Source: a virus
UHGV virus genome: UHGV-0221571
Length of the DNA stretch: 17,382 nucleotides
Strand: one strand, 5' to 3'
Shown here: piece by piece, positions 668 to 13,031 of the stretch
How positions within the stretch are numbered: the stretch's first letter is position 1
How the letters are laid out: each line of letters starts with the position of its first letter
Made by a program: the position numbers and the translations under genes
Notes under the pieces: generated by a model
The model's database searches: none
The model's input: only the letters and a program-made list of their open reading frames with translations
Told to the model about the DNA's origin: nothing

Positions 668-828
668 ACAGCCCCTCGTTTATTATTTATCTCCTCAGCC
701 AGCCGCTGGGCTTTCAGTGGATTTTGGATAACAGAAAGGCTGGGAAATACCCAGCCTCGCTTTGTAACGGAGTAGACGAAAGTGATCGCGCCTACCCGGA
801 TATTATCGTGAGGATGCGTCATCGCCAT
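640..828 (-). CDS. Small early-left protein, lambda Orf60a-like by position
   Basis: 62-aa ORF ([13 protein letters not shown]...) whose start overlaps the 3' end of exo by 10 nt, as in the lambda exo/orf60a arrangement. Confidence 0.5.
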
Positions 829-1499
829 TGCTCCCCAAATACAAAACCAATTTCAGCCAGTGCCTCGTCCATTTTTTCGATGAACTCCGGCACCATCTCG
901 TCAAAACTCGCCATGTACTTTTCATTCCGCTCAATCACGACATAATGCAGGCCTTCACGCTTCATGCGCGGGTCATAGTTGGCAAAGTACCAGGCATCTT
1001 TTCGCGTCACCCACATGCTGTACTGCACCTGGGCCATGTAAGCCGATTTTATTGCCTCGAAACCACCGAGCCGGAATTTCATGAAATCCCGGGAGGTAAA
1101 CGGGCATTTCAGTTCAAGGCCGTTGCCGTCACTGCATAAACCATCGGGAGAGCAGGCGGTGCGCATATTTTCGTCGCGATAGATGATCGGGGATTCAGTA
1201 ATATTCACGCCGGAAGTGAATTCAAACAGGGTTCTGGCGTCGTTCTCGTACTGTTTTCCCCAGGCCAGCGCCTTAGCATTAACTTCCGGAGCCACACCGG
1301 TGCAAACCTCAGCCAGCAGGGTGTGGAAGTAGGACATTTTCATGTCAGGCCACTTCTTTCCTGAGCGGGGCTTTGCTATCACGTTGTGAACTTCTGAAGC
1401 GGTGATGACGCCGAGCCGTAATTTGTGCCATGCATCATCCCCCTGTTCGACAGCTCTCACGTCGATCCCGGTACGCTGCAGGATAATGTCCGGTGTCAT
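819..1499 (-). CDS. exo: Lambda-type 5'-3' exonuclease (Red-alpha)
   Basis: 226-aa translation ([40 protein letters not shown] ... [11 protein letters not shown]) matches lambda Exo essentially along its whole length as I recall it. 4-nt overlap with bet. Confidence 0.95.
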
Positions 1500-2281
1500 G
1501 CTGCCACCTTCTGCTCAGTGGCTTTCTGTTTCAGGAATCCAAGAGCTTTCACTGCTTCGGCCTGTGTCAGTTCTGACGATGCGCGAATGTCGCGGCGAAA
1601 TATCTGGGAACAGAGCGGCAATAAGTCGTCATCCCATGTTTTATCCAGGGCGATCAGCAGAGTGTTAATCTCCTGCATGGTTTCATCGTTAACCGGAGTG
1701 ATGTCGCGTTCCGGCTGACGTTCTGCAGTGTATGCGGTATTTTCGACAATGCGCTCGGCTTCATCCTTGTCATAGATACCAGCAAATCCGAAGGCGAGAC
1801 GGGCACACTGAATCATGGCTTTATGCCGTAACATCCGTTTGGGATGCGACTGCCACGGCCCCGTGATTTCTCTGCCTTCGCGGGTTTTGAATGGTTCGCG
1901 GCGGCATTCATCCATCCACTCGGTAACGCAGATCGGATGATTACGGTCCTTGCGGTAAATCCGGCATGTACATGATTCATTGTCCTGCTCAAAGTCCATG
2001 CCATCAAACTGCTGGTTTTCATTGATGATACGGGACCAGCCATCAACGCCCACCACCGGAACGATGCCGTTCTGCTTGTCAGGGAAGGCGTAAATTTCTT
2101 TCGTCCACGGATTAAGGCCGTACTGGTTGGCGACGATCAACAATGCGATGAACTGCGCATCGCTGGCATCACCTTTAAATGCCGTCTGGCGAAGAGTGGT
2201 GATCAGTTCCTGTGGGTCGACAGAATCCATGCCGACACGTTCAGCCAGCTTCCCAGCCAGCGTTGCGAGTGCTGTACTCAT
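1496..2281 (-). CDS. bet: Single-strand annealing protein Beta (Red-beta)
   Basis: 261-aa translation ([68 protein letters not shown]...) matches lambda Bet. Sits in the gam-bet-exo order. Confidence 0.95.
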
Positions 2282-2286
2282 CCGTT

Positions 2287-2583
2287 TTATACCTCTGAAT
2301 CAATATCAACCTGGTGGTGAGCAATGGTTTCAACCATGTACCGGATGTGTTCTGCCATGCGCTCCTGAAACTCAACATCGTCATCAAACGCACGGGTAAT
2401 GGCTTTTTTGCTGGCCCCGTGGCGTTGCAAATGATCGATGCATAGCGATTCAAACAGGTGCTGGGGCAGGCTTTTTTCCATGTCGTCTGCCAGTTCTGCC
2501 TCTTTCTCTTCACGGGCGAGCTGCTGGTAGTGACGCGCCCAGCTCTGAGCCTCAAGACGATCCTGAATGTAATAAGCGTTCAT
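2287..2583 (-). CDS. gam: RecBCD inhibitor Gam, short (GamS-length) form
   Basis: 98-aa translation [37 protein letters not shown]...[10 protein letters not shown] matches the C-terminal 98 residues of lambda Gam. The upstream in-frame sequence is ...[19 protein letters not shown] with a stop at 2638-2640, so the lambda GamL extension is absent. Confidence 0.9.
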
Positions 2584-2658
2584 GGCTGAACTCCTGAAAA
2601 TGGCTGTGAAAATATCGCCCGCGAAATGCCAGGCTGATTAGGAAAACAGGAAAGGGGA

Positions 2659-3069
2659 TTAGTGATTCAGGCCGTTACCGCGTCCGTCGAGAAAAACTTC
2701 CACGAGCAAATCACGGGTATAAGTGCGCTCGATGCCGCGATGCAGATATAGCCGTCCGCGTAAATTAGCTGATGCAGTCCAGGTACCATCTTTGTGTTTG
2801 ACCAGCATTCCTGGCATGACCGCACCTCGATTAACGGTCTGCGTTCCGTAATGTTGATGAACCATAAAAACTCCTGCCCGTAAGCTGGGCTGCTGAACAT
2901 ATAGAGACTTCTGCGCGTATTCAGGCGGTGGATGGCCGCCGGTTGTCATAACTAAGTCGCCTCGTTGAAGCGACTGAGGTATGAAGTGTTGAGTTGATTT
3001 CAGCTGGTCACACCGACGTTCACGCGTCCGCTTCACCCCTCGCACTCCCCGGAGCCTGCTGAAATTCAA
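2659..3069 (-). CDS. Hypothetical protein downstream of the pL-like promoter; possible N-like antiterminator (very tentative)
   Basis: The ORF begins with TTG at 3069. The first in-frame GTGs are at codons 9 and 12 and the first ATG at codon 41. An Arg-rich stretch [13 protein letters not shown] lies near the N-terminus. First ORF after the OL-like operator cluster in the leftward direction. No boxA/boxB nut site recognised. Confidence 0.3.
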
Positions 3070-3127
3070 GCTGCGGATCTAAGCGGTCATCGCAACGGTG
3101 AAGTTATAAATTTTGTGATACCAACAT

Positions 3128-3180
3128 CGATGCAATAGCATGACAATAGCAATGGCTATTGGTGTAGTCAATAGCAATTA
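3128..3180 (-). promoter_or_regulatory. OL/pL-like operator cluster with a leftward promoter
   Basis: Three copies of CAATAGCA(A) at 3133-3140, 3144-3152 and 3169-3177, plus the inverted copy GCTATTG at 3155-3161 forming CAATAGC-aatg-GCTATTG. Minus-strand -35 TTGACT (3171-3166), 17-bp spacer, -10 TATTGT (3148-3143), overlapped by the repeats. The same motif family occurs in the cI/cro intergenic region. Confidence 0.4.
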
Positions 3181-3410
3181 GTATTGATAATGTTTGATAT
3201 ACTTGTTCTGATTGATAATTAAATGAATTTTTATAAAAAAGAGTATGAAGACTTATTGGTGTGGCTGAAATTTGTACAGCTTTAATGTGCCTCGTGACAG
3301 AGGGGCATCGGGTTGTGGTGAGCTCGGTAGGTTGGCAGCAAATTTAATCGAATATTGGTAGTCTGAGTTCTTATGTGTATTTTTTTAGTCAGTTGCTAAA
3401 TGATACATAA

Positions 3411-3450
3411 ATGACTTATTAGCCCCGCCATCGCTTTGTACGGGGCGTTT
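3411..3450. terminator. Hairpin terminator directly downstream of the SIR2-like gene (tImm-like position)
   Basis: Stem GCCCCG (3412-3417) / CGGGGC (3431-3436) with a 13-nt loop. T-rich run GTTTATTTAATTTA on the plus side; a moderately U-rich tail on the minus side. Confidence 0.45.
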
Positions 3451-3452
3451 AT

Positions 3453-5060
3453 TTAATTTATCTTTTCAACATTTCCATGAATCAACAAGTCGTAGGCAAG
3501 AAATAGTTTCCTATACTGGGTTTTTAAATTGTCAACGTCGCATGTCTTGAATTGAACAAACGCTTCTTTTTTAACATAATCTTCAATCTCCTCTTTGGGG
3601 ATATTTTTTATGTTCTTAATGACTATAGACAATTCTTTGTACTTTTTGAACTTTGCATCCTTTATATCTTTGATGTTGGTGTAAATTTTATTTGCATTGA
3701 TTTTATCTAAGGTGATTTTATTGAGCAAGTCGTCTAGTTTTCCGTGGCGTTCAATGCGTTGATTTAGTTTTAACACATATTTAGCTGGCAAACTTAACTC
3801 TTTCAAATTACATGAGGTTATAGTTTTTGAAAATGGAAGTTGTAATGAGTTTACTGAACCTAATATGAAATCTATGGCTAATTTATTAGATATTTCATTT
3901 TTATTAAATAAGTAGTCTTCAAGATAATTTATTTCTTTAACTTGTGTGAATACATACTTTTTATCGCCTAGAGCAACAACTAAATTTTTTCCTTGTTTAA
4001 CACTTTCTTCAAGTCTGTCTAAGTCAGAAGGTGAAACCAATAGAGTATCTAAGTGCCCTTTTTCACCCTCATTAATGATAAGTGTTTTAATGGCTCTTTG
4101 ATACCTTAAAACATCATAAGGTGAGAGCCCTTCATCAACAGCACTGATCTCATCATAGATCTGTTTATAGTTATCTGTTTTAACAGATGTATATGTAATT
4201 TGTAGCTGTTGATCGGTAATCTGTTTTGGTACTACTTCCTGTTCATTCTCTTTATATTCAATCAAAATTATTCTTTCAGCTGATTTTCGACCATCTTCTC
4301 TAGGTAGTTGTGAGGAAAAATCAGAAAGAAGTTTCTTTACATTCCTGTCAGTTAAAGAATATCCAAGAAAAACTATTGGATTTTTAATCATGTTAGATAG
4401 TATCTTGGCACTAATGAGTATAGATTTGTTGTCATATTTTTCGTAATCATCTTTATTTATGATTATTGAGTGTGGATCCTTTATATCACCATGTATTTTG
4501 TATAACTCACTCCAGCCAATAGTATCTTCGAAAAAACCATTATTTCCAATATAGAGTTTTGGAGTTACATTTTGCTCTTGAAGTAAATTTTCTATGAAAG
4601 CATCATAATTTGTAGTGATGATTATCTTGGCCTTTTTTATTAATGTTTTAAATGATGCTAATTCATCAAGATTTACATCCTTTCTGATTGTGTTATTAGA
4701 AAATCTTTGGCATATGGCGTATTTAAATGGTGAAATATCTTCACTAAAAACCCTCTTGGCATCTAGTCCATTTAATTTTAATTTGCCAGTCCTAAACAAT
4801 AGATTGTAATCATTTTCAATTTTACTTGCTGCCTCTGTATAAATCTTATGATCGATATCATTATCACTGTTATTTTTATGTGATTCTTTTATTGTTAAAA
4901 GATAACTATAGAAATCATTTGTGGGATTTGTTATTTTCCAATACTCGTTTAATAGCTCTTCCCACGTTGGGTAGTTCTCTAAATATCTTTTTGAAATGCC
5001 TGAGCCAATAAAGACTATTGGGTAATTTTTGAATTCAAAATTTTTTTTTGACATATCCAT
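3453..5060 (-). CDS. SIR2-like (defense-type SIR2_2) NADase-domain protein with an uncharacterised ~270-aa C-terminal domain
   Basis: 535-aa ATG-initiated ORF with AAGG 5 nt upstream. Motifs GSGIS (res 19-23), TTNYD (149-153), KIHGD (188-192) and FLGYSLTD (231-238) match the conserved blocks of defense-associated SIR2 domains such as ThsA. Visibly AT-rich relative to its flanks. Same strand as, and directly downstream of, the repressor. Confidence 0.75.
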   Translation of the reverse strand: MDMSKKNFEFKNYPIVFIGSGISKRYLENYPTWEELLNEYWKITNPTNDFYSYLLTIKESHKNNSDNDIDHKIYTEAASKIENDYNLLFRTGKLKLNGLDAKRVFSEDISPFKYAICQRFSNNTIRKDVNLDELASFKTLIKKAKIIITTNYDAFIENLLQEQNVTPKLYIGNNGFFEDTIGWSELYKIHGDIKDPHSIIINKDDYEKYDNKSILISAKILSNMIKNPIVFLGYSLTDRNVKKLLSDFSSQLPREDGRKSAERIILIEYKENEQEVVPKQITDQQLQITYTSVKTDNYKQIYDEISAVDEGLSPYDVLRYQRAIKTLIINEGEKGHLDTLLVSPSDLDRLEESVKQGKNLVVALGDKKYVFTQVKEINYLEDYLFNKNEISNKLAIDFILGSVNSLQLPFSKTITSCNLKELSLPAKYVLKLNQRIERHGKLDDLLNKITLDKINANKIYTNIKDIKDAKFKKYKELSIVIKNIKNIPKEEIEDYVKKEAFVQFKTCDVDNLKTQYRKLFLAYDLLIHGNVEKIN

Positions 5061-5166
5061 ATACCTTAAGCTCTGCTTGAAACATCCATTCTATAAATTA
5101 TGAGGATGTCAGCATGTCTCACCAAAACATCATCTGGTTATCTTGATGAAATCTGTCATTAATAAT

Positions 5167-5859
5167 CTACCCATGTTTTCTATATGTCTGTGGCATGCTC
5201 CCAATAACTTTCCCAAATATAAATACCCGATTCATTTCGTCTTTTTCGATCGGGTCCCACGGTGAGTAGCTCTTGTTATCAGAGATAACCAGCAGCTTAT
5301 CCTTCATCATTTGCAGGCGCTTTACATGGGCTGTGTCGTCGTACAGAAACGCATAGATACCATCACCGTCGAAAGATTTAACAGTGATATCAACGAACAG
5401 AAGATCACCTGGTTCGATCGTTCCTGACATGCTGTCACCGCGTACGTTAATGATGCGGATATTTTCTGCCTTCCTGCCATCGAACATGTGACGAGCATCG
5501 TCAAACGAGTACTCAACCGAGCGTAGGACTTCTACAAACTCACGGTTGATGACACCCGGCCCAGCACTGACTTCTATATCAAGAACGTCAATTTTGAAGT
5601 ATTTGGAATGGTTGACAGCAGGCTTCCCTGATTGTTGACCGTCATTTCTCATCGGGCCTATGCCTGATGAGAGCCACTCTGTTCGAACACCCAATGCATT
5701 AGCTATTTCAACAATTTTTGTTGAGCCGCGTGCGTTGCCGCTTGTCAGTCTCCAGATTGTGGGTTGAGCTACGCCAGACGCCTTTGCAAGAGCGCCTTGA
5801 GACATTCCAGATTGTTCCATCGCTAGGTTTAAGCGATCAGCAAGAGTTTCTTTTTTCAT
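5167..5859 (-). CDS. CI-like prophage repressor (HTH N-terminus, S24/LexA-like autocleavage C-terminus)
   Basis: HTH region ...MSQGALAKASGVAQPTIWRL... and C-terminal S24 motifs (VRGDSMSGTIEPGDLLFVD, ...HVKRLQ...). The track ORF starts at TTG 5895; I place the start at ATG 5859 (MKKETLADRL...), which sits right after a -10-like TATAAA, i.e. a near-leaderless arrangement like lambda pRM. Confidence 0.85.
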   Translation of the reverse strand: MKKETLADRLNLAMEQSGMSQGALAKASGVAQPTIWRLTSGNARGSTKIVEIANALGVRTEWLSSGIGPMRNDGQQSGKPAVNHSKYFKIDVLDIEVSAGPGVINREFVEVLRSVEYSFDDARHMFDGRKAENIRIINVRGDSMSGTIEPGDLLFVDITVKSFDGDGIYAFLYDDTAHVKRLQMMKDKLLVISDNKSYSPWDPIEKDEMNRVFIFGKVIGSMPQTYRKHG

Positions 5860-5865
5860 AAGTTT

Positions 5866-5965
5866 TAATTTATACGCTTGCGTATTGATGGTCAAAACAC
5901 GTTTTGCTATTGATTGGATTAATACGCATTGCTATTATCCATTCATTGCAATACCAATAGGAATT
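5866..5965. promoter_or_regulatory. OR-like divergent promoter/operator region (pRM-like leftward, pR-like rightward)
   Basis: Perfect palindrome ATACGC-tt-GCGTAT (5872-5885) lying between a minus-strand -35 TTGACC (5895-5890) and -10 TATAAA (5874-5869). Plus-strand -35 TTGATT (5910-5915), 17-bp spacer, -10 TATTAT (5933-5938). TTGCTATT(G) copies at 5904-5912 and 5929-5936, 25 bp apart, overlap these elements. ATACGC half-site again at 5922-5927. Confidence 0.5.
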
Positions 5966-5969
5966 GATA

Positions 5970-6197
5970 ATGACAAATCAAACCATTCAACTCGCAATCA
6001 GTATTACAGGTAGTCAAAAACGACTGGCAGATCTATGCGGTGTAGCCCAGCCCACTGTTTGGCGTTGGCTACACGGTGGCGGAATTGATGCCCGCTATGT
6101 AATGAAAATTGTCTCAGCCACTGGTGGAAAGATTAAACCAGCAGATATTCGTCCCGACCTTGCACCATTGTTTAACGCGAGTAATTCTGCCGCCTAA
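5970..6197 (+). CDS. Cro-like HTH regulator
   Basis: 75-aa ORF from ATG 5970 with AGGA 7 nt upstream. HTH ...RLADLCGVAQPTVWRWLHGG..., sharing the GVAQPT(I/V)WR recognition-helix motif with the divergent repressor. Confidence 0.8.
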   Translation: MTNQTIQLAISITGSQKRLADLCGVAQPTVWRWLHGGGIDARYVMKIVSATGGKIKPADIRPDLAPLFNASNSAA

Positions 6198-6221
6198 ACT
6201 GCGGCGTTAACTGATAAGGCA

Positions 6222-6767
6222 ATGACTATGCAACCACTTACATACCAACAGACTAGCGGATTTAGCCCGACTGCGGTGATAAATCGTTCTCAAATAAAAC
6301 AGGTGCCAGGCCACGAAAAAATCCGTGATGCCGTTCGCGCGTGGTCGGCTGCAGATAATCAGGATGTTGTTGCCGCACTCATTGTGAATGAGTATCGGGA
6401 GCAGGGCGGCGGCACCATCGATTTCCCTGATGATGTCAGCCGTGCACGCCAGAAGCTGTTCCGCTTCCTCGATAACAAATTCGATTCTGAAAAATACCGA
6501 AATAACGTGCGTGAACTGACCCCGGCAATTCTGGCGGTACTACCGCTGGAATATCGCGGTTACCTGGTTGAGCAGGATAGCTTCATGGCCAGGTTGGCTG
6601 AAATGGAAAAGGAACTCAGTGAGGCAAAACAGGCTGTCATTCTCAACGCACCACGCCACCAGAAACTGAAGGAAATTAGTGAAGGTATTGTATCGATGTT
6701 TCGTGTGGACCCAGATCTGGCTGGTCCATTGATGGCGATGGTTACTACCATGCTGGGGGCGATATGA
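6222..6767 (+). CDS. YdaT-like protein (functional CII analog in Rac-type immunity regions)
   Basis: 181-aa ORF immediately after the cro-like gene. Motifs EYREQGGG and LTPAILAVLPLEYR resemble the YdaT family as I recall it. Start could be 6222 or the ATG at 6228. Confidence 0.5.
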   Translation: MTMQPLTYQQTSGFSPTAVINRSQIKQVPGHEKIRDAVRAWSAADNQDVVAALIVNEYREQGGGTIDFPDDVSRARQKLFRFLDNKFDSEKYRNNVRELTPAILAVLPLEYRGYLVEQDSFMARLAEMEKELSEAKQAVILNAPRHQKLKEISEGIVSMFRVDPDLAGPLMAMVTTMLGAI

Positions 6768-6853
6768 CAGGTTCAGAAATGGCGAAAGCCGGTCTGCTGG
6801 AACAGAACCGACTTTCAGGTGCAAATCGTAACACACTCATTGCGGGAGGAATT

Positions 6854-7783
6854 ATGGCAAACACTGCTGAGATATTCAATTTTCCAGTGCCGGATGTGGC
6901 ACAAAAGGAGCGGCGCGTGGCAGATCTCGACGATGGTTATACGCGCATTGCAAATGAGTTGCTGGAAGCTGTGATGCTGGCCGGATTAACACAGCACCAG
7001 CTTCTGGTCTTCCTGGCTGTCATGCGCAAAACATATGGCTTTAATAAAAAACTGGATTGGGTGAGCAACGAGCAACTTTCCGAGTTGACCGGGATATTGC
7101 CGCACAAGTGTTCTGCTGCAAAAAGTGTTCTGGTAAAGCGTGGGATTTTTATTCAGAGCGGGCGGAATATCGGCATTAATAATGTGATCAGTGAATGGTC
7201 AACATTACCCGAATCAGGTAAGAAAAATAAAGTTTACCTGAAAGAGGTAAATTTACCTGAATCAGGTAAGAAAAGTTTACCCAAATCAGGTAAAGGCGTT
7301 TACCCGAATCAGGTAAACACAAAAGACAAACTAACAAAAGACAATATAAAACCTTTTTCGTCCGAGAATTCTGGCGAATCCTCTGACCAACCAGAAAACG
7401 ATCTTCCTGTGGAGAAACCAGATGCTGCAATTCAGAGCGGCAGCAGGTGGGGGACAGCAGAAGACCTGACCGCCGCAGAGTGGATGTTTGACATGGTGAA
7501 GACCATCGCGCCATCAGCCAGAAAACCGAATTTTGCAGGTTGGGCTAACGATATCCGCCTGATGCGTGAACGTGACGGACGTAACCACCGCGACATGTGC
7601 GTGCTGTTCCGCTGGGCATGCCAGGACAACTTCTGGTCCGGTAACGTGCTAAGTCCGGCCAAACTCCGCGACAAGTGGACCCAACTCGAAATCAACCGTA
7701 ACAAGCAACAGGCTGGTGTGACTGCCAGCAAACCAAAACTCGACCTGACAAACACTGACTGGATTTACGGGGTGGAGCTATGA
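6854..7783 (+). CDS. O: Replication initiator O
   Basis: From ATG 6854 (GGGAGGA upstream) the product MANTAEIFNFPVPDVAQKERRVADLDDGYTRIANELLEA... parallels the lambda O N-terminus. Iterons lie inside the gene. The track ORF begins earlier at 6764 (ATGA overlap with the upstream stop); the start is ambiguous. Confidence 0.85.
   Translation: MANTAEIFNFPVPDVAQKERRVADLDDGYTRIANELLEAVMLAGLTQHQLLVFLAVMRKTYGFNKKLDWVSNEQLSELTGILPHKCSAAKSVLVKRGIFIQSGRNIGINNVISEWSTLPESGKKNKVYLKEVNLPESGKKSLPKSGKGVYPNQVNTKDKLTKDNIKPFSSENSGESSDQPENDLPVEKPDAAIQSGSRWGTAEDLTAAEWMFDMVKTIAPSARKPNFAGWANDIRLMRERDGRNHRDMCVLFRWACQDNFWSGNVLSPAKLRDKWTQLEINRNKQQAGVTASKPKLDLTNTDWIYGVEL
7209..7320 (+). repeat. Origin iterons inside O (ori-lambda-like)
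   Basis: Four to five direct repeats of roughly TTTACCyrAATCAGGTAAg with ~23-bp period (starts near 7210, 7234 degenerate, 7256, 7280, 7303), followed by an A-rich tract at 7321-7360. Confidence 0.7.
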
Positions 7784-8466
7784 AAAATATTGCCGCGCAG
7801 ATGATTAACTTTGACCGTGAGCAGATGCGTCGAATCGCCAACAACATGCCGGAACAATACGACGAAAAGCCGCAGGTGCAGCAGGTGGCGCAGATCATCA
7901 ACGGTGTGTTCAGCCAGCTGCTTGCGACATTTCCGGCAAGCCTCGCGAACCGCGACCAGAACGAGCTGAACGAAATCCGCCGTCAGTGGGTTATGGCTTT
8001 CCGTGAAAATGGAATTACCACTATGGAGCAGGTTAACGCCGGAATGCGCGTGGCCCGCCGACAGGAGCGACCATTCCTGCCGTCGCCCGGCCAGTTCGTA
8101 GCGTGGTGTAAGCAGAGTGGCGGGGCGTTAGGTATCACTGTTGACCAAGTCATAACCGAATACTGGGATTGGCGTAATCGTTCCTTCGAATTCACTTCCA
8201 GCGAGCATTTCCCGTGGTCACAGCCTGTCATGTACCACATCTGCGTCGAACTGCGCCACCGTAGCATTGAGCGCCAGTTAACGCATGGCGAGCTGGCATG
8301 CGAGGCTGGTGACCTGCTGGACATGTGGGAGAAGCGCGTCAGTGAGGGCAAACCAATCCCTCCGGTCAGAAAACAAATCTCGGCTCCGCGCCACGTGCCC
8401 GGGCCGACTCCCGCTCAGCTTTTGCTTGAGCAATACAAAGCGCGTAAAGCAGTCGGATTTATTTAA
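7780..8466 (+). CDS. P: Replication protein P (DnaB helicase loader), lambda-like N-terminal half with a divergent C-terminal half
   Basis: MKNIAAQMINFDREQMRRIANNMPEQYDEKPQVQQVAQIINGVFSQLLATFPASLANRDQNE... closely matches the lambda P N-terminus. ATGA overlap with the O stop. Confidence 0.9.
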   Translation: MKNIAAQMINFDREQMRRIANNMPEQYDEKPQVQQVAQIINGVFSQLLATFPASLANRDQNELNEIRRQWVMAFRENGITTMEQVNAGMRVARRQERPFLPSPGQFVAWCKQSGGALGITVDQVITEYWDWRNRSFEFTSSEHFPWSQPVMYHICVELRHRSIERQLTHGELACEAGDLLDMWEKRVSEGKPIPPVRKQISAPRHVPGPTPAQLLLEQYKARKAVGFI

Positions 8467-8468
8467 CC

Positions 8469-9053
8469 ATGAACAAGAAATACACGTTGATCTAAGCGGA
8501 TCCGCCCTGGACGTACGAGGATAAATGCAATTCTGGTAAGCGTGGCACCGGGCATAAATACTTGGTTATGACGGTGCAGGATATCTGCTGGCTGCCAGTA
8601 AGGGAGCGGGTTGCAGAAAGCTGCCAGCTGGCGATGTGGTGGTTGCCAACTCAAACGTTCGAGGCGATGAAAGTCGTCGATGCCTGGGGATTTCGCCTGA
8701 TCACAATGAAAGGTTTCACTTGGGATAAAACCTACCCGAAGCAAACTGACAAATCGGCGATGGGAATGGGACACCTGATCCGGGCGAACCGTGAAGATTG
8801 TCTTTTCGCGGTAAAGGGTAAGCGGGCACCACAGCAGGACGCCTCGATCATCCAGCACTACACCTCGCCGCGACATGAGCACTCACGTAAACCAGACTGC
8901 GTGCGTGAAATGCTGGTTCGGTTGCTGGGTAATCTTCCACGTATTGAGCTCTTTGCGCGTAAATCCTCCCACGGTTTCGACGTATGGGGAAACAAGTGTG
9001 ATTCGCCAACCGTATCATTAAGCCCGGCCCGAGTTACTGATGTTTATTCTTAA
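8469..9053 (+). pseudogene. MT-A70-type DNA N6-adenine methyltransferase interrupted by an in-frame stop at codon 9
   Basis: ATG 8469 gives MNKKYTLI, then TAA (8493-8495), then in frame ADPPWTYEDKCNSGKRGTGHKYLVMTVQDICWLPV...EHSRKPD...ELFARKSSHGFDVWGNK. The stop sits where this family has a conserved Tyr (IYADPPW). The track ORF (8562 onward) starts with TTG and lacks the DPPW motif. Confidence 0.6.
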
Positions 9054-9264
9054 AAGAATTAACTGAAAAGAGGAAGGTTTGATGAGTTTTTTTACGTGAA
9101 TTAACACGTAAGACTGCTGGTTATTAAACCATCACATTAGATATCTAAAAATTGTGATCGGTATCTCCCTACTATAAAAAAAAGTAGTTGAATATACGGT
9201 CTATACTTGAAATAAATAAAAGTATTCTTATTTTTTAGATTCTGTGTTGTGAAAAGGAATTTTT

Positions 9265-10296
9265 ATGTCCTCGAATATTTTATCTGGTGAAAAAGTAATC
9301 AATAAAATTGCTGAAAAGTTGAGCGATTATAAATATCCTCCGGCTGAAGGTATGAACTCTGAACATGTCAGCAAATGGATTAAGCAATTTGCAGTGGAGG
9401 ATAGACGATTTATCTTAGATGAAACGCTTTATCTACTTAATGCAGGTTACCTATCCGAAAGTCAATATCAACGAAAAATAAAAGCCATTGCAAGAAGTGA
9501 AAAGAACGCGAAATTCTTCAGATATGCAGGTTTTTTAGATATTCAAAAAAAAGGTTCTAGTCAGAAGGAATTGCTTAAATCTCTTTATGAAACAGTAGGG
9601 ATCAAATTTAACATCGTTACTGAATCATCAACTCAAGATGAAGTAAATAAATTTGATACATTTGTATATATTGATGATGTGTCGTTTTCAGGAGAAAAGG
9701 CCATCAAATCGATAAGTAATTTTGTTTTAAAATTTAATTTAAGAGATATTAAATTCAATGTATATTTTTTTTCATCTCATACGTTATCTGACTATAATAT
9801 AAAAAGACGATTAGAATATATTTTTAAGGATAGAAACATTTTTGTACACGTGAAGAATGGTGGTATGCGTGAGGTTGAAAACCGAAAAAGTCGTTCTGCT
9901 CAATCAGGTGTTTTCTGGCCAAGGAAATATAGTGTAGATACTCCCGAGAAATTCGAGGAGTGTGAGCTTTACAAAGGCGTATTCAGAGATGGATATGCCT
10001 CTTCTGATAGTTTTAGAAATGAAGCCTCAAGGGATCGTTTCGAATCTATCCTTACTAAAGTCGGCTTTAATATCTTGCTGCACAGGAAAACCCCTAGTGA
10101 GGTGCTCAAACCTCTAGGTTTTTCTACTTTTGACGGTTTGGGTTTTGGGGGAACAACATTTACTTATCGAAATTGCCCGAATAATGTGCCGCTGGCTTTT
10201 TGGTGGGGAGATTATGAACCAACAGGTGCTCCCGCATTGGACTGCTGGTATCCACTAATGAAGCGGAATGGGTATAATGAGTGGTATGAGCTATAG
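9265..10296 (+). CDS. Hypothetical 343-aa protein, AT-rich cargo gene; possible PRTase-type nucleotide-binding motif
   Basis: ATG 9265 with AAGGAA upstream in an AT-rich intergenic region. The stretch TFVYIDDVSFSGEK (res 132-145) resembles the PRPP-binding signature of type I phosphoribosyltransferases. No other family recognised. Translationally coupled to the NADAR gene. Confidence 0.6.
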   Translation: MSSNILSGEKVINKIAEKLSDYKYPPAEGMNSEHVSKWIKQFAVEDRRFILDETLYLLNAGYLSESQYQRKIKAIARSEKNAKFFRYAGFLDIQKKGSSQKELLKSLYETVGIKFNIVTESSTQDEVNKFDTFVYIDDVSFSGEKAIKSISNFVLKFNLRDIKFNVYFFSSHTLSDYNIKRRLEYIFKDRNIFVHVKNGGMREVENRKSRSAQSGVFWPRKYSVDTPEKFEECELYKGVFRDGYASSDSFRNEASRDRFESILTKVGFNILLHRKTPSEVLKPLGFSTFDGLGFGGTTFTYRNCPNNVPLAFWWGDYEPTGAPALDCWYPLMKRNGYNEWYEL

Positions 10297-10897
10297 ATTA
10301 TATCCGCTACAGAACACAGTTTCCTTCAGGAAAACCACCGAAAAATGGGGGGGGCTTTCCAACATGGCTAAAGGATATCCATTGTTAATCAATGGGTTGC
10401 CTATTCAATCAAGTGAAATCCTTTACCAAGCATGCCGATATCCAGACTATCCGGATATACAAAAGGCCATCATTACTCAAGGAAACCCCTATGAAGCCAA
10501 GCAGACCGCAAGATCGTTTGAATCCAAAACTCGCGCAGGATGGGATAAGAATCGAGTTTCGATTATGAAGTGGTGTGTATGCGTAAAATTATGCCAGAAC
10601 TGGGATACGTTCTTTGCGCTGTTAGACAGTACAGGCGACCATTTCATCGTGGAACACTCAGAGAAGGACCAATTCTGGGGTGCCAGTAAAGACCCAGAAG
10701 GTAACTATTATGGTATGAACGTATTAGGGCGAATTCTCATGGACGTGAGAGGGGTTGCTAGGAAAAAGGGGGCTGATGGGTTTGCAACAATACCATCGCT
10801 ATCTTTGGACAAATTTTTTCTCCTAGGCGAAAGAATTAAAGATGTAACATTTGTAGAGCCAACGCCTGGAGCAGGGCAAAGTTTATCCTTGTTTTAG
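10268..10897 (+). CDS. NADAR-domain (YbiA-like) protein
   Basis: Matches to the NADAR/YbiA blocks: GGLSNMA, INGLPIQSSEILYQACRY, AGWDKNRVSIMKWCVCVKLCQNWDTFFALLDSTGDHFIVEHSEKDQFWGA...GNYYGMNVLGRILMDVR. Start uncertain (ATG 10268, 10277 or 10286); all overlap the upstream gene. Confidence 0.8.
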   Translation: MGIMSGMSYRLYPLQNTVSFRKTTEKWGGLSNMAKGYPLLINGLPIQSSEILYQACRYPDYPDIQKAIITQGNPYEAKQTARSFESKTRAGWDKNRVSIMKWCVCVKLCQNWDTFFALLDSTGDHFIVEHSEKDQFWGASKDPEGNYYGMNVLGRILMDVRGVARKKGADGFATIPSLSLDKFFLLGERIKDVTFVEPTPGAGQSLSLF

Positions 10898-11157
10898 CGT
10901 TCCATCTGGGGCATTTTCTTCCATAAATTAACTGGCGTACCTCCCTCGGCGTTTTTTTGTTGCCATAAAAGGTTTTTGATTTTCTATAATCAACCAGCCA
11001 TAATCATGTCACCGGAGCCTGAACAACTCCGGTGACTTCTGCGCTAAACGGGGACGTTTATGCGCACATACAATCTAAACTCTCTTCTCCCGCCACAGAT
11101 GCAGAAATGCACCTGCGATTTTTTGCATCCAGCGTTTGACCTCTGCGGAGGTGAAGC

Positions 11158-11613
11158 GTGAACCTCCCACAAGACGGCATCAAACTTCATCGCGGTAACT
11201 TCACCGCTATCGGTCAGCAGCTCCAGCCTTATCTGGAGGACGGCAAGTGCTTCCGCATGGTACTGAAGCCATGGCGCGATAAGCGCAGCCTGTCTCAAAA
11301 TAGCTTAAGCCACATGTGGTACACCGAAATCAGCGAATACCTCATCAGCCGGGGTAAGACTTTCGCTACGCCAGAGTGGGTGAAGGATGCTCTGAAACAC
11401 ACTTATCTCGGTTATGAAACCAAAGAACTGGTTGATGTCGTAACCGGTGATATCACCACTATCCAGTCGTTACGCCATACCTCCGATCTTGATACCGGAG
11501 AGATGTATGTCTTCCTGTGTAAGGTTGAAGCCTGGGCGATGAATATTGGTTGCCACCTGACTATTCCGCAGCGCTGCGAGTTCCAGCTGCTGCGCGACAA
11601 GCAGGAGGCGTAA
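11158..11613 (+). CDS. ninB: NinB-family protein (YbcN-like)
   Basis: GTG start with GGAGG 7 nt upstream. The product [39 protein letters not shown]... matches DLP12 YbcN as I recall it. Sits at the head of the nin cluster. Confidence 0.75.
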
Positions 11614-11783
11614 TGGCTACACCGCTTATTCGTGTCATGAACGGACACATCTACAAAGTACCAAATCGTCGTAAGCGTAAACCTGAGCTGAAGCCATCCG
11701 AAATACCAACTCTGCTCGGATATACCGCCAGCCTGGTTGATAAAAAATGGTTGCGACTGGCAGCAAGGAGGAATCATGGCTGA
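11613..11783 (+). CDS. ninE: NinE-family small protein
   Basis: ATG overlaps the ninB stop (TAATG). [56 protein letters not shown]. Confidence 0.8.
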   Translation: MATPLIRVMNGHIYKVPNRRKRKPELKPSEIPTLLGYTASLVDKKWLRLAARRNHG

Positions 11784-12066
11784 TTTGAGAAAAGCAGCGC
11801 GTGGTCGGGAATGCCAGGTAAGAATCCCTGGCGTCTGTAATGGCAATTCTGAAACGTCTGTACTGGCACATATCCGGCTGGCTGGATTGTGCGGTACCGG
11901 TATCAAACCGCCAGACCTGATTGCCACCATTGCATGTTCTGCCTGCCACGACGAAATCGACCGCCGCACACATTTTGTCGATGCTGCATATGCAAAAGAA
12001 TGCGCGCTGGAAGGTATGGCGAGAACACAGGTTATCTGGCTGAAAGAGGGGGTTATTAAGGCGTGA
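11776..12066 (+). CDS. ybcO: YbcO-like putative nuclease
   Basis: From the internal ATG ([42 protein letters not shown]...), Cys-rich. Overlaps ninE by 8 nt and rusA by 4 nt. Confidence 0.75.
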
Positions 12067-12425
12067 ATACCTACAGCATCACATTACCCTGGCCTCCGAG
12101 CAATAATCGCTATTACCGCCATAATCGCGGGCGCACGCACATCAGCGCAGAAGGGCAGGCATACCGCGATAACGTCACCCGAATCATTAAAAACGCAATG
12201 CTGGATATCGGCCTGGCTATGCCAGTGAAAATCCGCATTGAGTGCCACATGCCGGATCGCCGTCGCCGTGACCTGGATAATCTGCAAAAAGCCGCTTTTG
12301 ACGCACTCACCAAAGCAGGTTTCTGGCTGGATGATGCTCAGGTCGTTGATTACCGCGTTGTGAAGATGCCGGTTGTCAAAGGTGGAAAGCTGGAACTGAC
12401 CATCACTGAACTGGGAGATGAATGA
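12063..12425 (+). CDS. rusA: Holliday-junction resolvase RusA
   Basis: [100 protein letters not shown]... matches RusA. Confidence 0.9.
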
Positions 12426-12562
12426 TGTTTGAGTTTTATATGGCAGAACTTCTTCGCCACCGCTGGATGCGCCTGCGCTTATATCGTTTCCCCAGTTCTG
12501 TTTTGACCGATTACCGAATACTGAGGAATTACGCCAAAACCCTGACAGGAGCAGGAGTATGA
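12422..12562 (+). CDS. ylcG: YlcG-like small protein (46 aa)
   Basis: ATG overlapping the rusA stop; [46 protein letters not shown]. Below the ORF-track length cut-off. Confidence 0.6.
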
Positions 12563-12647
12563 AGTCAGAGATAACAATCAACTAATACTGTTTTATTGAT
12601 TTTTGCTTGTAATTGGCGTTCTGGTCTGATTTTTGTGGAGTAAGTTG

Positions 12648-13031
12648 ATGCGTGATATTCAGATGGTTCTTGAGCGTTGGGGAGCGTGGGCGGCTAATAA
12701 TCATGAAGATGTGACCTGGTCGTCCATTGCCGCCGGTTTTAAGGGATTAATTACTTCAAAAGTAAAATCTCGCCCGCAATGTTGTGACGATGACGCGATG
12801 ATTATTTGCGGGTGCATGGCCCGTCTGAAAAAGAACAACAGCGATTTGCACGATTTATTAGTAGATTATTATGTAGTCGGTATGACATTCATGTCACTGG
12901 CAGGTAAGCATTGCTGCTCTGATGGTTATATCGGGAAAAGGTTACAGAAGGCTGAGGGTATAATTGAAGGGATGTTAATGGCATTAGATATCCGGTTAGA
13001 GATGGATATCGTTGTTAATAACTCTAATTAA
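12648..13031 (+). CDS. quuD: Late-gene antiterminator Q (82/DLP12 QuuD type)
   Basis: ATG 12648 with GGAG 7 nt upstream. [62 protein letters not shown]..., Cys-rich as in Q proteins. Position after rusA/ylcG. Confidence 0.8.

Follow-up and report, generated by a model that had tools for sequence, protein, structure and literature searches.

In bacteriophage lambda, operators built on a single consensus and placed in inverted orientation flank the repressor gene and overlap the promoters pL and pR. Downstream of cI, on the same strand and inside the interval of about 2.4 kb that separates OL from OR, lie the accessory genes rexAB, followed by the terminator t-imm. OL contains three sites, the N gene and nutL are found after pL, and OL is able to act on pRM from a distance. 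The 933W immunity region is reported to have only two OL sites and to carry a lysogen-expressed gene beside cI. In phi80 (GenBank X13065), the annotated order is O-L, genes 40A/40B, cI, O-R and gene 30, with accessory genes located between O-L and cI.

Here, we analyse the equivalent region in the virus genome UHGV-0221571, available as a stretch of 17,382 nucleotides (the window), from the first letter of which all positions are counted. A preliminary description had proposed that the segment 3128-3180 is a second operator cluster, analogous to pL/OL of lambda. The window corresponds to the early region of a lambdoid prophage of the phi80/Rac type, with a GC content of 40% around the locus. 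Several complete E. coli chromosomes, for example that of CT29 (NZ_CP032073), contain an identical copy (100%) of the 3000-5200 segment, which includes the SIR2/PDC-S25 version of the OL-cI interval and was detected in 166 of 5,426 genomes; the segment comprising the cI N-terminus, OR and cro is found in 719 of the 5,426 complete E. coli genomes.

Comparison with known systems

As in lambda, operators with one consensus, inverted with respect to each other, flank the repressor gene and overlap pL and pR (Table 1). Within the OL-OR interval, which measures 2.8 kb, cI is followed on its own strand by an accessory gene of the defence type, and a terminator-like hairpin is located after this cargo. 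The differences are also clear. The operator is an 18-bp palindrome with the half-site CAATAsCwA and a centre-to-centre spacing of 25 bp, OL contains two canonical sites instead of three, N and nutL are missing after pL, a single SIR2 gene takes the place of rexAB, and the cro and cII analogues are of the YdaS and YdaT types. These two analogues match Pfam families named 'YdaS toxin' and 'YdaT toxin', names that are misleading here because the position of the genes is that of ordinary switch regulators.

With phi80, the locus shares the order of its elements, a kil homologue and a 60-nt element (2924-2985). However, in phi80 the 60-nt element is found just downstream of a 98-aa N gene, which separates it from O-L and has no counterpart here; a 237-nt leader query matched phi80 in the 60-nt element only, and phi80 is absent among the listed megablast matches for 2600-6300. 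Among the closest known systems are members of the same immunity group, namely the Bievrevirus phages 4A7, 4C10 and Perceval, together with PhiR30_1 and related records. Their cI, OR and cro are 96-97% identical to those of the window, and they possess the OL pair 25 bp apart, the same promoter register and the same cargo slot. They differ by their OL allele (B, as compared to A here, see below) and by their cargo, which is not SIR2. Finally, the HTH domain of cI is similar to the 434 repressor (E = 1.6e-5), a likeness at the level of fold and family only, and the operator sequences of both 434 and 933W are unrelated to those described here. In literature searches, no published operator analysis of this immunity group was found.

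Table 1. Predicted elements of the immunity region and of the early-left operon, in window coordinates (a dot stands for elements not assigned to a strand)
Feature	Position	Strand	Remarks
exo	819-1499	-	after bet
bet	1496-2281	-	after gam
gam	2287-2583	-	after kil
kil homologue	2659-2948	-	96 aa from ATG at 2948; first gene of the leftward operon
pL leader	2949-3136	-	about 190 nt, apparently non-coding
Isolated half-site CAATAGCA	3133-3140	+	arm of the 11-bp tandem repeat CAATAGCATGA / CAATAGCAATG over the inferred pL start
pL candidate	3143-3171	-	-35 TTGACT 3171-3166, 17-nt spacer, extended -10 TG-n-TATTGT 3148-3143; consensus scan
OL1	3144-3161	.	perfect 18-bp palindrome CAATAGCAATGGCTATTG; overlaps pL -10 by 5 nt
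OL2	3169-3186	.	operator CAATAGCAATTAGTATTG; 25 bp from OL1; overlaps pL -35 by 3 nt
Third conserved element GATAATTAAATGAATT	3214-3229	+	GATA-N3-AAA-N-GAATT; non-canonical; overlaps ATTGATAAT at 3211
G+C-rich hairpin	3422-3446	.	directly after the SIR2 stop; z = -2.9; T-tract better on + strand
SIR2_2-domain protein	3453-5060	-	535 aa; 28-32% GC, against 45-55% on the flanks
cI repressor	5167-5859	-	230 aa from ATG 5859; HTH_3 and Peptidase_S24 domains
OR3	5870-5887	.	overlaps pRM -10
pRM	5895-5867	-	TTGACC 5895-5890, 17-nt spacer, TAAATT 5872-5867
OR2	5895-5912	.	overlaps pR -35 by 3 nt; abuts pRM -35
pR	5910-5938	+	TTGATT 5910-5915, 17-nt spacer, TATTAT 5933-5938
OR1	5920-5937	.	overlaps pR -10 by 5 nt
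Fourth OR-side site CAATACCAATAGGAATTG	5949-5966	.	covers the cro ribosome-binding site; 14.3 bits (OR1-3 matrix)
cro analogue	5970-6197	+	YdaS-type HTH protein; family match
cII analogue	6222-6767	+	YdaT-type; family match

One operator motif on both sides of the repressor gene

The OL and OR sites conform to an 18-bp palindromic operator, CAATAGCNA.TNGCTATTG, the half-site of which is CAATAGCA(A). Alignment of 20 half-sites gives the consensus tCAATAsCwA. When the specified positions of the operator, AATASSNNNNSSTATT, are searched in the 17.4 kb with at most one mismatch, six matches are obtained (3145, 3170, 5871, 5896, 5921 and 5950), all in OL or OR, against 0.45 expected; six matches were reached in none of 200 shuffled sequences. 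This pattern was derived from these same sites, a circularity that is offset by a matrix built on OR only and by independent OL alleles. In the non-circular test, a weight matrix trained on OR1-3 only was used to score the whole window as well as 200 null windows. The site at 3144 reaches 17.6 bits, a value found in none of the 200 null windows, and that at 3169 reaches 15.1 bits, which taken by itself is equalled in six of them. The two sites are the top two non-training matches in the 17.4 kb, the next one being at 5949. In the neighbouring SIR2 gene, the operator pattern is absent even if two mismatches are allowed. Since this gene is AT-rich, AT-richness is not the cause of the motif.

Every element noticed at first sight is recovered by this analysis. 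The palindrome CAATAGC-aatg-GCTATTG is contained in OL1, the 25-bp spacing described as common to OL and the cI/cro intergenic region recurs at 5871, 5896 and 5921, and the enrichment over shuffled sequence, put forward as a check, is borne out by the pattern count as well as by the OR-only matrix, which ranks both OL sites at the top. Three copies of CAATAGCA(A) had been counted in the cluster, at 3133, 3144 and 3169. All are present, but the first one is an isolated half-site that does not form a full operator (-4.1 bits when scored as such with the OR1-3 matrix); moreover, it is specific to OL allele A. The recurrence of the 10-mer ATTGATAATG is real, with coordinates to be shifted by one base (3183-3192 and 5963-5972, not 3184-3193 and 5964-5973), and ATTGATAAT had been correctly placed at 3211-3219 (3 copies in all, 0.47 expected). 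The ATTGAT common to several of these sequences is an outward extension of the half-site (sTATTGAT), observed at OR2, OR3, OL2 and the fourth OR-side site.

A canonical third OL operator was sought at +25 from OL2 (3195-3210) with both the pattern and the matrix and was not found, so that canonical OL operators are two only. The functional unit, extending over about 3133-3229, is longer than the segment first delimited.

Mirror-image geometry of pL and pR

A leftward promoter, TTGACT-17-TATTGT, had been reported to be overlapped by the operators. An independent consensus scan identified it at the same place, with a TG before the -10 hexamer and 9 of the 12 consensus positions matched. Transcription would start near 3136. 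For the leftward operon, the scan covered 2500-3142, between gam and pL, and revealed no other promoter-like site on the minus strand. The arrangement of OL1 and OL2 on pL is the mirror image of that of OR1 and OR2 on pR (5895-5938), with the same overlaps of 5 nt on the -10 and 3 nt on the -35 elements. Read in the direction of transcription, pL and pR can be superimposed as TTGCTATTGAyT-N5-AATAssCATTGCTATTrT, and OL and OR form an inverted repeat with 47-nt arms, 72% complementary. In both promoters, the hexamers are composed of operator half-sites.

On the other side of OR, the position of the pRM -10 element puts the predicted start at or next to the ATG of cI (5859), which suggests a leaderless cI mRNA, as in lambda. 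A longer, TTG-initiated cI reading frame (to 5895) is unlikely, as it would begin within OR2.

OL alleles and covariation with cI

The flanks of the locus are common to 16 phage records, and the left-hand BLAST homology ends at 3102 in all eight loci that were aligned. In PhiR30_1, 4A7 and Perceval, which have the same cI, two pattern sites 25 bp apart occur at OL within DNA that cannot be aligned with the window. Relatives homologous only in the C-terminal domain of cI have none of these sites; their OL and their own OR contain repeats of the AAAACTATAGTTGTTTT type instead. Across these mosaic relatives, the operator sequence covaries with the DNA-binding domain of cI.

A broader sample was provided by 80 IMG/VR loci, each of up to about 9.7 kb, encoding a cI with about 100% identity and scanned at no more than one mismatch. 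Matches are limited to the OR sites and the OL site or sites. OL mostly contains a pair 25 bp apart; OL1 alone passes the threshold in six loci, and three short loci end before OL. Three diverged OL alleles can be distinguished, A (that of the window), B (the common one) and C (found in L074). All of them keep the register of the leftward -35 and -10 elements, and TTGATA-17-TATTAT can be read in the pL register of alleles B and C. Among 40 unique sequences of allele B, 5 of the 24 specified operator columns are variable, as compared to 5 of the 8 central columns. In near-identical phages with this allele, the 6-9 bp that immediately follow OL2 (2088-2096 in L001) and the OL1-OL2 spacer are hypervariable, with the operators kept.

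In every locus examined, the SIR2 cargo is linked to allele A and to this cI. In a search of IMG/VR for a SIR2 cargo beside a different cI, all 16 loci obtained proved to have this cI together with OL allele A. The SIR2 cassette is delimited by recombination junctions at 3102/3103, inside the pL leader, and at about 5160-5167, at the cI stop codon. Because of the constant linkage, the cassette that was swapped, from 3103 to the cI stop (about 5160), included the operators.

The pL leader and the early-left operon

The promoter had been said to point at a 136-aa ORF and at gam, bet and exo. These genes do lie downstream on the same strand, but the ORF (2659-3069, TTG start) is probably the 96-aa kil preceded by a non-coding leader. 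The variable sites at codon positions 1/2/3 are indeed distributed as 5/3/6 in 2949-3069, with no codon-position bias, and as 2/5/18 in kil. An N-like peptide (mini-N) was considered in the N-terminal extension of the ORF, where the Arg-rich KRTRERR resembles lambda N, and was ruled out by these same distributions.

Between 3136 and kil, no N-sized ORF with a coding signature was found, and the N gene of phi80 is absent. The search for a nut site or nutL after pL gave none, and Rfam returned no match at E <= 1 for the entire window. An HK022-type put RNA was also tried and rejected, the local similarity between the leader and 5941-13000 scoring 23, against 22.6 +/- 2.3 in shuffles. A blastn search with 2866-3102, where the leader is conserved, matched 23 records, none of which is HK022. 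The predicted fold of the leader is not significant (z = -0.28). In longer folds, as well as in allele C, the transcript start pairs with GUUGCGAUG to form a stem; in a 75-nt context, this stem is not the minimum-energy structure in alleles A and B. Between kil and gam, a terminator-like hairpin with a T-rich tail is observed on the minus strand (2634-2617). It lies in an operon devoid of a recognisable antiterminator that would allow pL transcription to pass it, a point that counts against the pL assignment.

The 60-nt element common to phi80 covers the ribosome-binding site and start codon of kil. It is embedded in otherwise unrelated DNA, with 82-95% identity in HK225 and phi80 and 76-85% in Enterobacter and Klebsiella phages. 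It may represent a recombination joint or a regulatory RNA.

A cargo slot between OL and cI

The SIR2 gene matches PADLOC PDC-S25 from end to end (E = 1.7e-235); literature searches on PDC-S25 returned an incidental mention only. It starts 106 nt after cI, and neither a terminator-like site nor a promoter scoring at least 9/12 is present between the two genes. The hairpin that follows its stop codon is a candidate terminator of a cI-SIR2 transcript, similar to t-imm of lambda. By analogy with rexAB, the gene had been placed inside the OL-OR interval. It is indeed located there, on the cI strand, and the interval turns out to be a variable cargo slot. In 81 loci of the same immunity, the DNA between OL and the cI stop, of about 0.7-2.0 kb, falls into 19 cargo classes, and the large ORFs are all on the cI strand. 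Some of the cargo genes match PADLOC candidates (PDC-M63B, PDC-M66B, PDC-S42, RmrA/capP-like), and toxin pairs of the HipA and Gev types are annotated in heteroimmune relatives. The OL-cI interval is a defence/toxin hotspot in which candidate anti-phage genes are swapped. An ImmA/RmrA-like gene associated with a second gene, and membrane proteins, are also observed in the slot (L001-L088). Literature searches on the GevT/GevA annotations of PhiR phages found nothing relevant. Elsewhere in the window, a second island of low GC content (31-33% in 9001-10000), with plus-strand ORFs at 9265-10296 and 10268-10897, may correspond to another acquired accessory gene.

Expression data are available for one phage of the group. 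In an LF82 lysogen of Perceval, transcription exceeds the prophage background 11-fold for CI and 81-fold for LF82_152, a 'transmembrane protein'; the proximal cargo gene of Perceval is not listed as expressed (PMC9928086). Annotation and gene numbering point to LF82_152 as the distal gene of the Perceval slot (PERCE_42). The slot would thus be active in lysogens. The high value of the distal gene, with the proximal one unlisted, suggests that cargo can have its own promoter.

Additional conserved elements

Beyond the two canonical operators, the third conserved element is found exactly at +69 from the start of OL1 in all three OL alleles, with different intervening DNA (including in L001 and L074). 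It is the sole match to GATA-N3-AAA-N-GAATT in the window, scores -0.2 bits with the operator matrix and may be a weak OL3 or the site of another factor. Its overlap with ATTGATAAT explains the third copy of this sequence. Its sequence is similar to that of the fourth OR-side site (5949-5966, ...GGAATTG). As a side observation, 5949-5972 and 3169-3192 form a 24-nt direct repeat with 83% identity, which relates the fourth site to OL2 and its flank and includes an ATG; in the OL2 flank, this ATG opens a frame of 10 codons only.

Several features may lead one to imagine that the OL region is more than a copy of that of lambda, in one or more of three ways, an idea that we consider rather unlikely as a whole. 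First, another regulator could bind the third conserved element and the related site at OR (5949-5966), or these could be preferred targets of Cro. Second, in view of the half-site specific to allele A and of the strict linkage of this allele to SIR2, the operators could travel with the defence gene and tune it, for instance by OL-OR looping. Third, the N-less leader of about 190 nt could carry a new cis-acting element for antitermination or stability.

Assignment of the OL/pL region

In our view, 3133-3229 is the OL/pL region of a lambdoid prophage whose early region resembles those of phi80 and Rac, and we give this reading, including the mechanism proposed below, a probability of about 0.88. 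From the observed sequence, geometry and comparisons, we infer repressor binding, promoter activity, co-transcription and any OL-OR loop. The analogy with pL/OL advanced in the preliminary description is upheld by the matches to the OR-trained matrix, by the mirror geometry of the promoters, by the three diverged alleles and by the occurrence of a different motif with a different cI N-terminal domain. Taken together, this evidence makes operator function by far the best reading.

It may also be envisaged that the sites are genuine cI/Cro operators serving mainly as a distal looping partner for OR, where they would tune pRM and thereby the levels of cI and SIR2, the promoter being weak or not the main early-left one. 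The match of only 9/12 consensus positions, the lack of an N gene or nut site after the promoter and the precedent of lambda OL, which acts on pRM from afar, would fit with such a role. However, the hexamers consist of operator half-sites in exactly the same way as those of pR, all three alleles retain them, and the minus strand of 2500-3142 offers no other promoter-like site. We regard a primarily looping function as improbable; besides, one role does not preclude the other. Alternatively, the inverted repeat GCTATTG...CAATAGC (3155-3175) could act in the RNA rather than as a protein-binding site, a hairpin or terminator shielding the cargo from the early-left operon, and a terminator scan does list 3155-3175 on both strands. 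Such a stem is nevertheless an unavoidable by-product of two adjacent palindromic operators, and for this reason was rejected as a terminator. In alleles B and C, which keep the operators, pairing of the equivalent arms (GCTATTGgtgatatCAATAC) is poorer. Together with the absence of a proper T-tract and the presence of a better hairpin right after the SIR2 stop, this makes an insulating function very improbable. Lastly, the idea that the repeats are functionless, chance low-complexity sequence in AT-rich DNA could appeal to the 40% GC of the region and to the count of the bare 8-mer (four copies of CAATAGCA, at 3133, 3144 and 3169 on the plus strand and 5905 on the minus strand, 0.78 expected, with at least four in 2 of 200 shuffles), but it is effectively refuted by the top ranking of both sites with the OR-trained matrix, the lack of pattern matches in the much more AT-rich SIR2 gene, the spacing and promoter register kept in three diverged alleles and the covariation of the motif with the cI N-terminal domain.

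Assuming the OL/pL assignment, the following mechanism can be proposed. In the lysogen, cI dimers would bind OL1 and OL2, thereby covering the -10 and -35 elements of pL and keeping kil-gam-bet-exo silent. The same cI would bind OR1 and OR2 on pR with the mirror-image geometry. Upon SOS-induced cleavage of cI, involving its S24 domain, pL would fire and its transcript would run through the leader into kil-gam-bet-exo. The SIR2 gene, acquired horizontally, occupies the cargo slot on the cI strand. Like rexAB in lambda, it would most likely be expressed in the lysogen, with pRM and/or its own promoter driving it. A repressor loop between OL and OR is plausible; the paired sites of the two sides are separated by 2776 bp, and the C-terminal domain of cI is of the S24 type.

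Conclusion

The architecture of this locus is that of the textbook, and the understanding of lambdoid switches is unchanged. The analysis defines the predicted operator code and promoter layout of a very common and apparently uncharacterised immunity group. This is useful in annotation, in the prediction of prophage genes that lysogens express and in the design of constructs to test PDC-S25.
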